Assembly (NCBI GenBank): GCA_964485575.1
Contig: CAZAJO010000002.1
Location: 23,230 to 87,229, forward strand
Length of the DNA: 64,000 nt
From: an uncultured Gammaproteobacteria bacterium
Lineage (GTDB): Bacteria > Patescibacteriota > Microgenomatia > Levybacterales > GWA1-39-11
Direction of reading: 5' to 3'
The notes under the pieces were generated by a model. It was not told the DNA's origin and made no database searches. It worked only from the letters and a program-made list of their open reading frames with translations. This document shows, one piece after another, positions 26,485 through 34,488 of the stretch. Position numbers and translations under genes: made by a program. How positions within the stretch are numbered: the stretch's first letter is position 1; each line of letters begins with the position of its first letter.

Positions 26485-27242
26485 ACTATAAATTAAAAAT
26501 TGCTTGGCTGTATCCGGAACTTATGTCTACATATGGAGACAGAGGTAACATAATTGTTTTGCAAAAAATTGCCGAAGACAACGGAATTGAAGTTGAAATT
26601 GTTCGAATCAACCAAACTTCTGACTCCGAACTACTAACCACTTGTAATCTAATATTTATGGGTGGTGCTCAAGATCTACAACAAGAAATTGTCAATAAAG
26701 ATCTACTTGAGAATAAAGGGGAAGTTCTAAAACAAATGATTGAAGATGGTACTCCTGGACTTTACATCTGTGGGGCTTTCCAATTCCTGGGAAATTACTA
26801 TAAAGATGCATACGGAACAAAAATCGAGGGACTCCGCATTTTTGATATGCATACTGAAAGTTATAAAAACAAACCACGCCTCATCGGGAATTGCGTAATC
26901 TCCCAAACTAAACCCTCTACCCTAAACGCTAAACCCTTCCTTGTAGGTTTTGAGAACCATGGAGGGAGAACATATCTCTCTGACAAATCGCAGGCTTTTG
27001 CGAAAGTTGAGCTAGGGCATGGCAACAATGGAACTGACAAAACTGAAGGAATACACTATAAAAATTCAATCGGAACATATCTACATGGACCTATTTTACC
27101 TTCAAACCCAGAGCTAGCTGTCTACCTGTTGGAACTTGCTTACGAAAAAAAATACGGGGAAAAAATCACTCTGAAATTTGAAGATGTCCTCTCCAAAAAA
27201 GCAAAAACTGCCATTCTAAAAAGACTTGGCGCTAAACTTTAA
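26481..27242 (+). CDS. gatD: lipid II isoglutaminyl synthase, glutaminase subunit GatD (CobB/CobQ-like GATase)
   Basis: The catalytic Cys sits in the LYICGAFQFLG context. The N-terminal DRGNIIVLQ and a 4-nt overlap with murT fit the family. Confidence 0.75.
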   Translation: MNYKLKIAWLYPELMSTYGDRGNIIVLQKIAEDNGIEVEIVRINQTSDSELLTTCNLIFMGGAQDLQQEIVNKDLLENKGEVLKQMIEDGTPGLYICGAFQFLGNYYKDAYGTKIEGLRIFDMHTESYKNKPRLIGNCVISQTKPSTLNAKPFLVGFENHGGRTYLSDKSQAFAKVELGHGNNGTDKTEGIHYKNSIGTYLHGPILPSNPELAVYLLELAYEKKYGEKITLKFEDVLSKKAKTAILKRLGAKL

Positions 27243-28279
27243 CGGATAACATCCTCCAAAAACATTGTCCCTGCCAAATCAAGATGCAACATAAAATCTT
27301 GCGCAAACTTTGATCTTTTCTGAGGTTTTCTGCCCAAAGCATCCTGAGCACGGGTATTTCCTACAAGCAATAGTTCAAATGATTTCTTAATATCTTTTTG
27401 GTATTCCTGTAGTAGCTGTTCTGCTTCTTTTAATTTATCTCTATGAACAAGCGAAGCGAAATTGTCGGAAAAATCATTATCTGATTGAACAATCGAAACT
27501 ACTATATGATTACTAACCATCATCGATTTTCCCAACTTCAAAAGATTAGAGACTTCTTCAGGTTTTAATAACGATTCTATGTTTCCCAACCCTGATTCTA
27601 CTGTAGGTCCTTCTATAACCTCTCTTAAGAAGTGGACCATCTGCTTTGGAGAGGCCACACATACGGTGAGCTCGCCAACCATAGTCCCTGCTTTTTCAGC
27701 CTCTTCAACGAGTCTGTCGGGATCAAAACTTACCCTATCAAAGTCTTCCTTTGAAATATTGTCATGTTGCACCACCAATGTTGTGGCAGCAAAAGCTCCT
27801 AAGGCAACCGATGCGTCCAACAAGACATCGACAGGTATTTCTCCAGTAGGCATAAGTGGATTTTCAGCACGGAACACAAGATAATGGGGCAGATAGGCCA
27901 TACCCGCAAGTAAATCCCGTGTCTCGCCTACACTTAATGGACGAGTTGTATCCCCATCTTCCCGTGACGCAATCTGGATATCCCTCACGTATTTGAAGGC
28001 GCTCAAATTTTGTTGGTAGTGCTCATTTAACCTTCTCCTCTCAAGTCCACTCATTGGTTTTTCATGTGGCTCCCCATTTGGATACCTACTTGGACTATCT
28101 GAAAATGGACATTTCTGTAGCTCAAAGTCGATACCAGCCGTATGAGGATTTTCCACTCTTCTATTACTATCAAGAGGGATACCTGTTGTATCGGTAAAGT
28201 AGGTCATATGCATATCAAACAAAGAAACCGATGGGGCTAATTTTGGAGTACTTTCAGATGGTGCGAGTGTTTCTGCCAT
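27239..28279 (-). CDS. hypothetical protein, member A of an uncharacterised tandem-paralog pair
   Basis: 346 aa. It shares with its neighbour the motifs CPFSDSPSRYPNGEPH, PMSGLERRRL and VGELTVCVASPKQMVHFLREVIEGPT. No known family was recognised. Confidence 0.5.
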   Translation of the reverse strand: MAETLAPSESTPKLAPSVSLFDMHMTYFTDTTGIPLDSNRRVENPHTAGIDFELQKCPFSDSPSRYPNGEPHEKPMSGLERRRLNEHYQQNLSAFKYVRDIQIASREDGDTTRPLSVGETRDLLAGMAYLPHYLVFRAENPLMPTGEIPVDVLLDASVALGAFAATTLVVQHDNISKEDFDRVSFDPDRLVEEAEKAGTMVGELTVCVASPKQMVHFLREVIEGPTVESGLGNIESLLKPEEVSNLLKLGKSMMVSNHIVVSIVQSDNDFSDNFASLVHRDKLKEAEQLLQEYQKDIKKSFELLLVGNTRAQDALGRKPQKRSKFAQDFMLHLDLAGTMFLEDVIR

Positions 28280-28283
28280 AAAT

Positions 28284-29408
28284 TTAACGTAAATATTTTT
28301 TTCTTCTGTCTGAGGCTTTTGCGCTAGATACTTTTACAAAAGGTCTATTTAACCCACCATTTCTTATATATTTTGCTGTCGTGAGATTGAGGCTTTCTTC
28401 AAATACCTCGAGAGGAACGTTGTCTTGATAGTCATAATCCCTACCTAATGCAAAATTGGCAGCTGCTTGATTTATAAGCATGAGAGTAACTTCTTGGGCA
28501 ACGTGCTGAAGATATGATTCGGCAGCAAGTTGCATTTCTTCCTGTCTTCCACTTGAGTATAATTTATGTAGCATTGCATATACATCCAGATCCACTACTC
28601 TAAGCTTATTGATCGTACCTACCCCTTCATACATCGCTTTTCCGTAAGCGAATAGATTGGATAATTCAGATTGATCTACAAATTTTGGAAGTGAACCTTC
28701 GCCGGTTCTTGTTGGACCTTCAATTACTGCTTTGAAGAAGTGAGCCATTAGCTCTGGGGAGGCTGCACAAACGGTTTTCTCACCAACCAATCGACCTGAT
28801 TTCTCTGATTCTTCGATCATCTGTTGTGGATCAGGCACTTGATCAAGATATTCATCTCCTTCTCCTTTTTGGACTAACATATATGAACCCAGAGCAGCTA
28901 GTGAACCTGCAGCGGCATTAGCCATAACTATCAGATCTGTAGGAAGTTCACCTAATCCTTTTACTGGATTTTCGCTTCGATAGACTAAGTAAGCAGCTGC
29001 ATAGTTGAGAGCCATCAGCACTTCTCTTGTGTCATAAATCGTAAGTGGTTCTTTTCTGTCCTCTCCATCTCTCGTCTGCTCTAGATAATAATCCCGTACA
29101 AAACTGAGGTTGCCAAGGATTTCATAGTAGTTTTCTGCCAACCTATCCCGCTCAAGCCCACTCATGGGAATCGCATGAGGTGCTCCATCCGGATATCTAC
29201 TTGGACTATTTGAATATGGACATGGCTGATATCTAAAATCTATTCCCTCATGCAATTTGTAACCATACGGGTCACGGTCACTGTCTTTTGGGATACTGTC
29301 TACATCTGTTAAAGGAGAATCTCCCATCACAATAAGTGTCAGTTGCTGACTAGAATCCATTTGAGGTGTTTCTTTTATTTTGGGGGCAGGTCCCAGCACT
29401 TCTGACAT
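28284..29408 (-). CDS. hypothetical protein, member B of an uncharacterised tandem-paralog pair
   Basis: 374 aa. The matching motifs are CPYSNSPSRYPDGAPH, PMSGLERDRL and VGEKTVCAASPELMAHFFKAVIEGPT. Confidence 0.5.
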   Translation of the reverse strand: MSEVLGPAPKIKETPQMDSSQQLTLIVMGDSPLTDVDSIPKDSDRDPYGYKLHEGIDFRYQPCPYSNSPSRYPDGAPHAIPMSGLERDRLAENYYEILGNLSFVRDYYLEQTRDGEDRKEPLTIYDTREVLMALNYAAAYLVYRSENPVKGLGELPTDLIVMANAAAGSLAALGSYMLVQKGEGDEYLDQVPDPQQMIEESEKSGRLVGEKTVCAASPELMAHFFKAVIEGPTRTGEGSLPKFVDQSELSNLFAYGKAMYEGVGTINKLRVVDLDVYAMLHKLYSSGRQEEMQLAAESYLQHVAQEVTLMLINQAAANFALGRDYDYQDNVPLEVFEESLNLTTAKYIRNGGLNRPFVKVSSAKASDRRKKYLR

Positions 29409-29484
29409 GAAATTATTATAGGCTGCGTGAGGCTAAAAGTCAACGTTCCACGCTTATTAACAATAAATATTATACAATTACGCT

Positions 29485-30018
29485 ATGACTGCTAACAAAA
29501 TTCATTTTATATTGACTGGCGGAACTATTGACTCTGTTTGGAATGGATCAAGGGATACAGCAACCGTTTCTGAGCATTCTGTTTTACCCGAGTATTTCAA
29601 CAAGTTAGGAAGAAATCTTAAATTCAATACCCAGTTTGAATTTACAGAAGTCTGCATGAAGGATAGTAGGGAAATAAATGAATCAGGTAGAAAAGAGCTT
29701 GTTAAGGTGATTGAAAAAAGTGATTCAGAAAGGATTATTGTTACTCACGGCACATATACAATGCCAGATACTGCTCGTTTTCTTAAATCACACTTGACAC
29801 GTGCTGATCAGACAATTGTAATAACTGGTTCTATGGTCCCCATGGAAGGATTTGACTTTTCTGACGGTCCATTCAATTTAGGTTTTGGCATTGCTGAAGT
29901 TGCAAGGCAAAATCCGGGTATTTATGTTTGCATGAATGCAAATACTTTCAGCCCAGATGAAGTTGCAAAAGATACTACTGAAGGAAAATTCTACTCCATC
30001 TTCGACGAAAAACAATAA
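29485..30018 (+). CDS. L-asparaginase-like protein consisting of the N-terminal catalytic domain only
   Basis: Both catalytic threonine motifs are present: ILTGGTIDS and VTHGTYTMPDTA. The protein ends after about 177 aa with no C-terminal domain. Confidence 0.5.
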   Translation: MTANKIHFILTGGTIDSVWNGSRDTATVSEHSVLPEYFNKLGRNLKFNTQFEFTEVCMKDSREINESGRKELVKVIEKSDSERIIVTHGTYTMPDTARFLKSHLTRADQTIVITGSMVPMEGFDFSDGPFNLGFGIAEVARQNPGIYVCMNANTFSPDEVAKDTTEGKFYSIFDEKQ

Positions 30019-33651: not shown

Positions 33652-34488
33652 ATGGCAAACGACAACGAAGAATCCCCAAGTCTAACAGGAATGGAAGAAT
33701 TCAACGAAAGGTTTAAGCCACAAAATCCTAATACAAGAGCTGAACAGAAAACCCCAACACAAGAACAAATCAGAGATGGCATTCGAGCAACTAAGATACA
33801 CGGAGATATCGGAGTTGAATTGGACATGCTAGCTCGCGGATCAAAATCCAAAATAGAAGTAAAAGAAGCGTTAGCAAATGCTCAACTAAAATTACTAAAA
33901 AGATTCGATAAAATGAAAAGTCAACTCGATAGACTCAAAGATATGGCATACCTAGATCCACTTACTGGTTTATTAAATAGACGAAGCTATGATGAATACA
34001 TGCAGGCTAATTCAGGCAAAAAAAAAGGTATACTTTTTATTGATGTTGATAACTTCAAACAAGTCAACAATTTCGGGTATGAAGTTGGAGATGAAGCATT
34101 AAAAATTGTTTCAAATGCAATGCTCGACAGCCGGGGTGGAAATCCTATATTATTTAGAGTTGGTGGCGATGAATTTGTTGCAGTATATGAAGAAACAGAT
34201 GATCCAACGACCCTAAAAATAAATGCAGAAGAGACAAGAGAAAATGTAGGTTCGACTGAGTTGGAAACAACTACAGGTGAGGTTGTGCCATTTTCAGTAA
34301 GTGTTAGTGGAGGGATTTTTGCTGGAGGAAGCCTAGAAGATGTTGATGCTTACAAAAACATGGTATCATCTGCTCTTTTAGCAAATAAACAACAAGGTAT
34401 AAAAAATGTATCTTATATATTTGGAGTGGATGATATGAAAACAGGAGGAGATACCCCACCTTCTGTACAAGTGTCTGACGCGGCGTAG
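33652..34488 (+). CDS. GGDEF-domain diguanylate cyclase (stand-alone, coiled-coil N-terminus)
   Basis: The substrate-binding motif YLDPLTGLLNRRSYDE and the active-site motif LFRVGGDEFVAVY are present. No RxxD I-site was seen. Confidence 0.65.
   Translation: MANDNEESPSLTGMEEFNERFKPQNPNTRAEQKTPTQEQIRDGIRATKIHGDIGVELDMLARGSKSKIEVKEALANAQLKLLKRFDKMKSQLDRLKDMAYLDPLTGLLNRRSYDEYMQANSGKKKGILFIDVDNFKQVNNFGYEVGDEALKIVSNAMLDSRGGNPILFRVGGDEFVAVYEETDDPTTLKINAEETRENVGSTELETTTGEVVPFSVSVSGGIFAGGSLEDVDAYKNMVSSALLANKQQGIKNVSYIFGVDDMKTGGDTPPSVQVSDAA

Follow-up and report, generated by a model that had tools for sequence, protein, structure and literature searches.

Two adjacent open reading frames (ORFs), ORF B and, directly downstream of it, ORF A, lie in the 64,000-nucleotide stretch of DNA analyzed here (the window). 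They are real genes and anciently duplicated members of a new superfamily of soluble, acidic, all-alpha-helical proteins, whose distant members recur in secondary-metabolite gene clusters. We use X as shorthand for the gene or domain of this family. That A and B are real genes follows from ratios of nonsynonymous to synonymous substitution rates (dN/dS) of 0.09 to 0.26, from a native GC content, overall and at third codon positions (GC3), and from a consensus promoter conserved across loci. As far as the tools reach, the family is categorically new. The best explanation of the whole, to which we give a probability of about 0.4, is that X may be a thiol-dependent enzyme whose substrate is of the peptide or aminoacyl type, with A and B as a specialized pair.

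The paralogy of A and B is well supported. BLASTP aligned 329 residues of the two proteins at 38% identity (E=1e-64), well beyond what chance would give, and in a neighbor-joining tree of the family, calculated without bootstrap, the A and B clades came out as sisters on a single sub-branch, with a long stem leading to the A clade. These results confirm the tandem duplication of one gene that an earlier note on this DNA had proposed, and the three collinear motifs it had singled out, CP[FY]S[DN]SPSRYP[ND]G[EA]PH, PMSGLER.RL.E.Y and VGE.TVC.ASP..M.HF...VIEGPT, are found in both proteins. Its description of the pair as Cys-rich did not hold, since each protein contains exactly two cysteines. Both are predicted to be soluble and acidic, with an isoelectric point of approximately 5. 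ORF A starts 4 nt past ORF B on the same strand, and the GC and GC3 values of both genes match those of their neighbors.

The absence of a recognizable family, also claimed in that note, was borne out by searches of Pfam, NCBIfam, PADLOC, PHROGs and PDB sequences. For A and B, the best match in Pfam-A, NCBIfam, PADLOC and PHROGs reached only E=0.08 (12.9 bits). Profile scans of 52 close members gave no known family common to more than two of them, and the X domain of the distant members had no match in the Pfam, NCBIfam, PADLOC and PHROGs scans. Searches of PDB sequences with a single sequence and with profiles A1, A2 and A4 gave best E values of 0.044 to 0.59, confined to helical or low-complexity stretches. 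Structure prediction was more informative. A first AlphaFold2 model built from 9 sequences had a mean predicted local distance difference test score (pLDDT) of 76, and the 52-sequence alignment yielded a model of B with a pLDDT of 90.1 and a predicted template modeling score of 0.88. The predicted structure comprises sixteen helices, including two very long antiparallel ones, H246-285 (40 residues) and H289-320 (32 residues), as well as a non-helical N-terminal arm (residues ~33 to 83, pLDDT of at least 94). In the model, this conserved arm and a 'VG..xVCA..P' loop pack on the long helical core. The structure search that the earlier note had suggested, carried out with Foldseek on the pLDDT-90 model against BFVD, returned no match and thus no known fold. 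As far as the searches used reach, X is therefore a new family, and its modeled fold is probably new.

Several known systems share some features with A and B. The all-alpha fold recalls HEPN proteins, and R71-x6-H78 of the window fits the R-x4-6-H spacing of that group; however, the spacing is not kept across the superfamily, the histidine is not invariant, and the confident model showed no HEPN fold match. A P-loop NTPase was likewise rejected: the sequence 'GRLVGEKT' is out of the Walker A register, K211 is a leucine in ORF A and missing in the distant branch, and the fold is all-alpha. Cysteine motifs of the sortase and YkuD type and the C-x5-R motif of rhodaneses and protein tyrosine phosphatases were ruled out on motif register, conservation or fold.

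The family is considerably larger than the window pair suggests. A word-indexed search of 5.8 billion proteins found 7 clusters, all unnamed, whereas exhaustive searching of 1.84 billion representatives with a profile gave 160 at E<1e-3, 45 of them at E<1e-30; a word-indexed search using profile A4 gave 2 proteins, and a metagenome scan using A3 gave 4 loci. The members form three groups. Group (i), with 340 to 390 residues, holds the close relatives, which are from Patescibacteria in all cases where a source label or the gene surroundings allowed a check; a metagenome-assembled genome (MAG) labeled Ca. Saccharibacteria contributes one family member. Group (ii), with 400 to 480 residues, occurs in Acidobacteriota (Blastocatellia), Burkholderia and others, all named 'hypothetical'. 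Group (iii), with 530 to 950 residues, carries an extra conserved N-terminal domain of ~90 residues and, in one case, also a C-terminal HemK/PrmC-like methyltransferase. The homology between groups (i) and (ii) is full-length (hhalign probability 99.9%, E 3.6e-37, 313 columns). Group (ii) shares with A and B the motifs D..G[IR]PL, CP[YF]S.SR..H..PM[SN], YL..R..P..G.LP, AE..G.[LM][VI]G...VCA..P and ALGR, but differs by an insertion of ~90 residues in the C-terminal helices and by the lack of K211/T212 and of the SPSRYP.G.PH spacing; no group (ii) relative has been characterized. Seven copies of the N-terminal domain of group (iii) align well (alignment A5). The domain gave no Pfam or PDB-profile match that would support reading it as a PqqD-like recognition element (RRE). 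A thioesterase domain in the N-terminal extension of P0081 was considered and dropped, because BLASTP showed no similarity to the thioesterase of locus L020.

Residue conservation was counted in the 52 close members, whose mean column identity is 30%. Of the residues, C214, S68, G168, E202 and L321 are present in every sequence (52/52), R71, R144 and R323 in 51, and D35, R45, S70, S83, E86, R89 and Y140 in 50. Block 2 (Table 1) is kept in the distant branch as AE..G.LIG..EVCAGPP, and the equivalents there of R45, R71 and C214 (C195 in that branch) are invariant. The first cysteine behaves differently: C63 occurs in 33/52 and is replaced in the other 19, mostly by Asn (10 sequences), while H78, also present in 33/52, is missing in about a third. 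Of the residues singled out in the earlier note, only the second cysteine (C214 in B, C207 in A) is family-invariant, and a conserved Cys, His and Asp site does not extend to the whole family. Judged from these alignments, the data point to one universal thiol plus an optional second, set amid Arg, Ser and acidic residues.

Table 1. Features of the X pair and of two neighboring genes, with positions in the window
Feature	Position	Strand	Remarks
ORF B	28284..29408	-	374 aa; upstream copy; B-type, with basic C-terminal tail
ORF A	27239..28279	-	346 aa; downstream copy; A-type, without basic tail
Motif block 1 of B, residues 56-90	29139..29243	-	IDFRYQPCPYSNSPSRYPDGAPHAIPMSGLERDRL; predicted non-helical N-terminal arm with S68, S70, R71, S83, E86 and R89; pLDDT at least 94
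Motif block 2 of B, residues 200-218	28755..28811	-	ESEKSGRLVGEKTVCAASP; invariant E202 and C214
Motif block 3 of B, residues 320-323	28440..28451	-	ALGR with L321 and R323; common to the distant branch
Basic C-terminal tail of B	28287..28307	-	RRKKYLR, after a variable low-confidence linker; pLDDT below 50
Motif block 1 of A, residues 50-84	28028..28132	-	
Motif block 2 of A, residues 193-211	27647..27703	-	holds C207, the equivalent of C214
Sigma-70-type promoter	29415..29443	-	TTGACT-17 nt-TATAAT; best promoter match in the region, 11/12
Asparaginase N-terminal-domain protein	29485..30018	+	177 aa; PF00710, E 1e-21
GGDEF protein	33652..34488	+	diguanylate cyclase-like

These counts bear directly on whether X binds a metal such as zinc through Cys63, His78 and Cys214, in a structural site or in a Lewis-acid site like that of the LanC cyclases. 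LanC-like lanthipeptide cyclases are all-alpha, peptide-modifying enzymes whose zinc is bound by Cys-Cys-His, and thiol-activating zinc enzymes of this kind are known in peptide and NRPS (nonribosomal peptide synthetase) clusters. The likeness to A and B, drawn from general knowledge and useful as a lead only, comprises the all-alpha fold, a length of 350 to 430 residues, two conserved cysteines plus a histidine, and an occurrence in peptide-type clusters. Both window proteins have exactly these two cysteines plus the histidine, and in the distant branch, members of which occur in such clusters, C56, the equivalent of C63, is kept in at least 90%. In the close family, by contrast, neither C63 nor H78 comes near the constancy of C214. 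Moreover, the 8 sequences without C63 among the 23 displayed residue by residue in alignment A3 all keep H78, which would leave two ligands, insufficient for a site. The data thus do not support a Cys/Cys/His metal site throughout the family, and we regard a metal-binding role as a long shot. A LanC-like cyclase as such was rejected on the same variability of C63 and H78 and on the lack of a LANC_like match and of a barrel fold match.

The conservation pattern leads us to favor an enzyme over a scaffold. The active site of such an enzyme would be centered on C214 and surrounded by R45, R71, R89, R144, R323, S68, S70, S83, D35, E86, E202 and E248, with C63 as an optional second thiol in a resolving or auxiliary role. 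The predicted Arg-rich pocket suggests an anionic substrate, with a carboxylate or phosphate. The contexts of the distant members described below suggest that this substrate might be of the peptide, aminoacyl or peptidyl type.

We also considered that X could be a non-catalytic adaptor, scaffold or regulator, in which the arm and the basic tail would dock a conserved partner (the machinery of cell division or of the wall, the transamidosome, tRNA or the ribosome), while the long helical hairpin would serve as a spacer. The modeled all-alpha fold with its two very long antiparallel helices fits such a role. In addition, the tail, of consensus RR[KR]K[YFL]L[RK], follows a variable linker and resembles a short docking motif, no cofactor motif was found, and X evolves faster than the neighboring enzymes. 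Nevertheless, the many invariant Ser, Arg, Glu and Cys residues in loops form a pattern that is commoner in active sites than at interfaces. The tail occurs in the B-type and in several of the single-copy members (P0002, P0003, P0005, P0006, P0008 and P0015) and missing from A-type and many other members. Furthermore, distant homologues lie inside NRPS and polyketide synthase (PKS) clusters and are fused to a methyltransferase. Overall, an adaptor seems unlikely to us, and we return to the enzyme reading.

The earlier note, which had looked at the window only, missed that the family extends beyond small genomes into biosynthetic clusters of the NRPS, PKS and peptide type, resembling those for antibiotics and siderophores, whereas A and B themselves lie between housekeeping operons. 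At L008/L009, X is accompanied by two thioesterases, a YbaK-like protein, an ASL-type lyase, a PALP protein, an ATP-grasp protein, an M28 peptidase and a DUF5916 protein, and a DrrAB-like ATP-binding cassette (ABC) exporter lies 4 nt upstream of X. L019 contains a multi-module NRPS, a major facilitator superfamily (MFS) transporter, an aminotransferase, a GNAT protein, an arginase, X, SbnA-like and SbnB-like proteins and a DUF5916 protein, and L020 contains a PKS, an NRPS, a thioesterase and X. At L026, a gene of the metallo-beta-lactamase (MBL) fold overlaps X. The ~800-residue DUF5916 protein was dropped as a candidate universal partner; it follows X only in L008/L009 and L019. L027 lies in Burkholderia arboris MEC_B345 pla_2 (NZ_CP101526.1, record ~931.8 to 936.0 kb), where an unannotated cluster runs in the order MbtH-like protein, MBL-fold protein (475 aa), Cupin_8/JmjC protein (318 aa), X homologue (480 aa) and a 936-residue protein without Pfam match; the MbtH-like protein matches PA2412 in the PDB (E 2e-22). 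An AT-rich region of ~400 bp precedes this cluster within an otherwise high-GC replicon.

A further arrangement is that of L025 (contig JAYTZQ010001147.1 of GCA_043741755.1). Two tandem ORFs of 15 codons (439-486 and 552-599), each with a ribosome-binding site, both encode MKVKSKVRAGGQPRG; they differ at 7 nucleotides, all synonymous. They stand just upstream of P0109, the 949-residue group (iii) protein that joins the N-terminal extra domain, the X domain and the HemK/PrmC-like methyltransferase, and downstream of P0109 follow an HlyD-like protein, a Peptidase_C39-ABC exporter and a second ABC protein. The encoded peptide contains AGGQ, like the GGQ loop of release factors, which is the natural substrate of PrmC/HemK-type methyltransferases. 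From its sequence, L025 looks like the architecture of a ribosomal-peptide natural-product cluster, apparently one not described before. Short precursor-like ORFs beside X were found at L025 only, and none in the window or in the Patescibacteria loci. Literature searches on DUF5916, on MurT/GatD in Saccharibacteria or Patescibacteria, and on ribosomally synthesized and post-translationally modified peptides together with GGQ turned up nothing relevant.

In Patescibacteria, the gene keeps different company. The neighbors named in the earlier note, murT/gatD on the convergent side and an asparaginase-like gene with gatCAB on the divergent side, were confirmed by Pfam: MurT has Mur_ligase_M and MurT_C and GatD has GATase_3, and the divergent side carries a protein consisting only of an asparaginase N-terminal domain, a TrpR-like protein, GatC/A/B, a GGDEF protein and DnaE. 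The order gatCAB, X, gatD-murT was found in the window and 11 further loci (among them L001 to L006, L013, L014, L021 and L023), with flanking proteins down to 46 to 56% identity; the TrpR-like gene is present in some loci only. L007 and L016 show ftsA, X, alaS instead, and in L022 X lies between SecA and Clp_N genes. X has no homology to MurT/GatD or to the GatCAB subunits; it adjoins their genes in the window and the 11 loci and lies elsewhere in L007/L016 and L022. The gatD and ORF A stop codons, on opposite strands, overlap by 4 nt (27239-27242), leaving no room for a terminator between the two genes, and a scan found none.

In Patescibacteria, the substrate might then be endogenous, such as a precursor peptide of peptidoglycan or an intermediate linked to aminoacyl-tRNA. 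X repeatedly has a tRNA-related operon (gatCAB or alaS) on one side and a wall or division operon (murT-gatD or ftsA) on the other. Aminoacyl-tRNA-dependent transferases (the Fem family, the peptide aminoacyl-tRNA ligases known as PEARLs, and cyclodipeptide synthases) resemble X in genomic theme only, a theme that includes these operons and the YbaK-like deacylase in one distant cluster; X also has an Arg-rich conserved surface and a basic tail. An aminoacyl-tRNA-linked reaction is thus an attractive lead, drawn from the tRNA and wall contexts and one YbaK-like gene in a handful of neighborhoods.

The duplication is old, as judged from the sequences, and both copies have been maintained. A-type orthologues (window A, L001, L013, L021, L014 and P0009) are 57 to 77% identical and orthologues of ORF B 53 to 96% (53 to 54% in the comparison of duplicate types), while A-type and B-type proteins share 30 to 36% across loci. 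Outside the window, the pair is kept in at least three lineages; it is present in L001 to L004, L013 and L021. L014, a close relative with neighbors 73 to 94% identical, has the A-type only; L005, L006, L023, L022, L007 and L016 have a single copy, and other genomes keep only the A-type or only the B-type. Consequently, either type can still function alone. An absence of the pair from related genomes, which the earlier note thought would make it a strain-specific expansion, was not seen: every related locus recovered has either the pair or one copy. ORF A departs from the family consensus at K211 (Leu), N164 (Ser) and D44 (Asn), and A-type proteins differ at these otherwise well-conserved positions. 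Since the duplication, the A copy would have shed its basic docking tail at the C terminus and altered K211 and N164, and these changes suggest that B and A are probably a specialized pair, possibly a hetero-oligomer.

The dN/dS values of A and B were obtained against their orthologues; those of GatA/B/D and MurT are 0.04 to 0.13, except for GatB between L014 and L021 (0.21, at near-zero divergence). In comparisons of the window with L001/L021, X has a dN of 0.30 to 0.40 and its neighbors have one of 0.08 to 0.14. These values indicate purifying selection together with a two- to fourfold faster protein change than in the neighbors. The locus is also mosaic. Along a ~3-kb tract (L001:9500-12500), the X pairs of L001 and L013 are 88 to 98% identical in nucleotides, whereas most flanking windows are 65 to 87% and a DnaE segment 88 to 90% identical; between L014 and L021, identity is 94% as far as the left edge of the X locus (break at L014:~5807) and drops to 71% past it, and one copy is missing. 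These identity patterns indicate that the X locus has been exchanged by homologous recombination among these Patescibacteria populations; as the DnaE segment shows the same mosaic pattern, the recombination is not specific to X.

A variable, mosaic and fast-changing locus could also be expected of a factor that confers resistance or immunity to natural products, whether small molecules or peptides, and that would protect producers from themselves and episymbiotic Patescibacteria from metabolites of hosts or neighbors. The adjacency of X to exporters, namely the DrrAB-like ABC transporter in L008/L009, the MFS protein in L019 and the C39-ABC and HlyD-like proteins in L025, is consistent with this idea. 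On the other hand, the same housekeeping position is kept down to ~50% identity of flanking proteins (L023), selection is purifying and not positive, and PADLOC gave no matches. The methyltransferase fusion beside precursor-like peptides fits biosynthesis better, and the mosaic identity extends to DnaE. We therefore consider a resistance role improbable.

Several observations weigh against a thiol-dependent enzyme acting on peptide or aminoacyl substrates. L011, L012 and L017/L018, as well as L022 with its SecA and Clp_N genes, show no biosynthetic, tRNA or wall neighbors; there is no universal partner gene; and small genomes also keep their gene order for neutral reasons. The faster evolution of X also fits a non-catalytic or conflict-related role. 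In addition, the step from residue conservation to catalysis is one that we infer from the alignments, and a very remote known relative may exist, the fold comparison having covered BFVD.

If X is an enzyme, it would represent a new catalytic fold with ~160 sequence clusters in two settings. A bolder version, which we consider doubtful, is that X is a new enzyme fold and class for the tailoring of peptides or of aminoacyl/peptidyl intermediates. Free-living bacteria would use it in NRPS/PKS and ribosomal-peptide pathways, and Patescibacteria would have taken it over, in one or two copies per genome, to carry out an essential housekeeping modification, for instance of the stem peptide of peptidoglycan or of an intermediate derived from aminoacyl-tRNA. 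L025 would make a small modified peptide from its 15-residue AGGQ precursor. Patescibacteria keep few genes and are poorly understood. A gene that stays there under purifying selection, in a conserved housekeeping position and with a consensus promoter, is a good place to look for missing biochemistry. In natural-product clusters, a recurring candidate tailoring or immunity gene could explain chemical steps not yet accounted for. Uncharacterized families are common in Patescibacteria; X is unusual in its confident, novel-looking fold, its sharply defined conserved site and its link to natural-product clusters, with a tractable homologue in Burkholderia. Since B. arboris is cultured and genetically tractable, the question is experimentally accessible.

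The promoter upstream of ORF B ends 6 nt before the ATG, and there is no Shine-Dalgarno sequence; on this spacing of the -10 box, the B-A transcript is predicted to be leaderless or near-leaderless. The promoter region of ~40 nt (29409-29450 on the minus strand of the window; L001:9961-10000) has 0 to 2 differences between the window and L001, L021 and L013, in contrast to the encoded proteins, which are only ~53% identical to B. Comparable -10 boxes lie 5 to 14 nt upstream of the ATG in L006, L022, L023, L007 and L016.

Among the neighbors of the pair, the asparaginase-domain gene lies between X and the TrpR-like/gatCAB genes. It occurs in the window only, being missing from the syntenic loci L001, L013, L014 and L021, and its position beside gatCAB recalls the asparaginase-like domain of archaeal GatD. 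The GGDEF gene stands directly downstream of gatB in the window and in all syntenic loci, a conserved gatCAB partner that is unexpected in reduced genomes. The nearest named GatB homologues are from 'Ca. Levybacteria' (77%) and the 'Patescibacteria group' (~60%), and the genome of the window belongs to the Patescibacteria (CPR). Finally, the MAGs of L013 and L014, although titled 'uncultured Gammaproteobacteria bacterium', carry a typical Patescibacteria order (PolX, LemA, HtpX, MurT-GatD, GatCAB), and their titles are probably a labeling or binning error.

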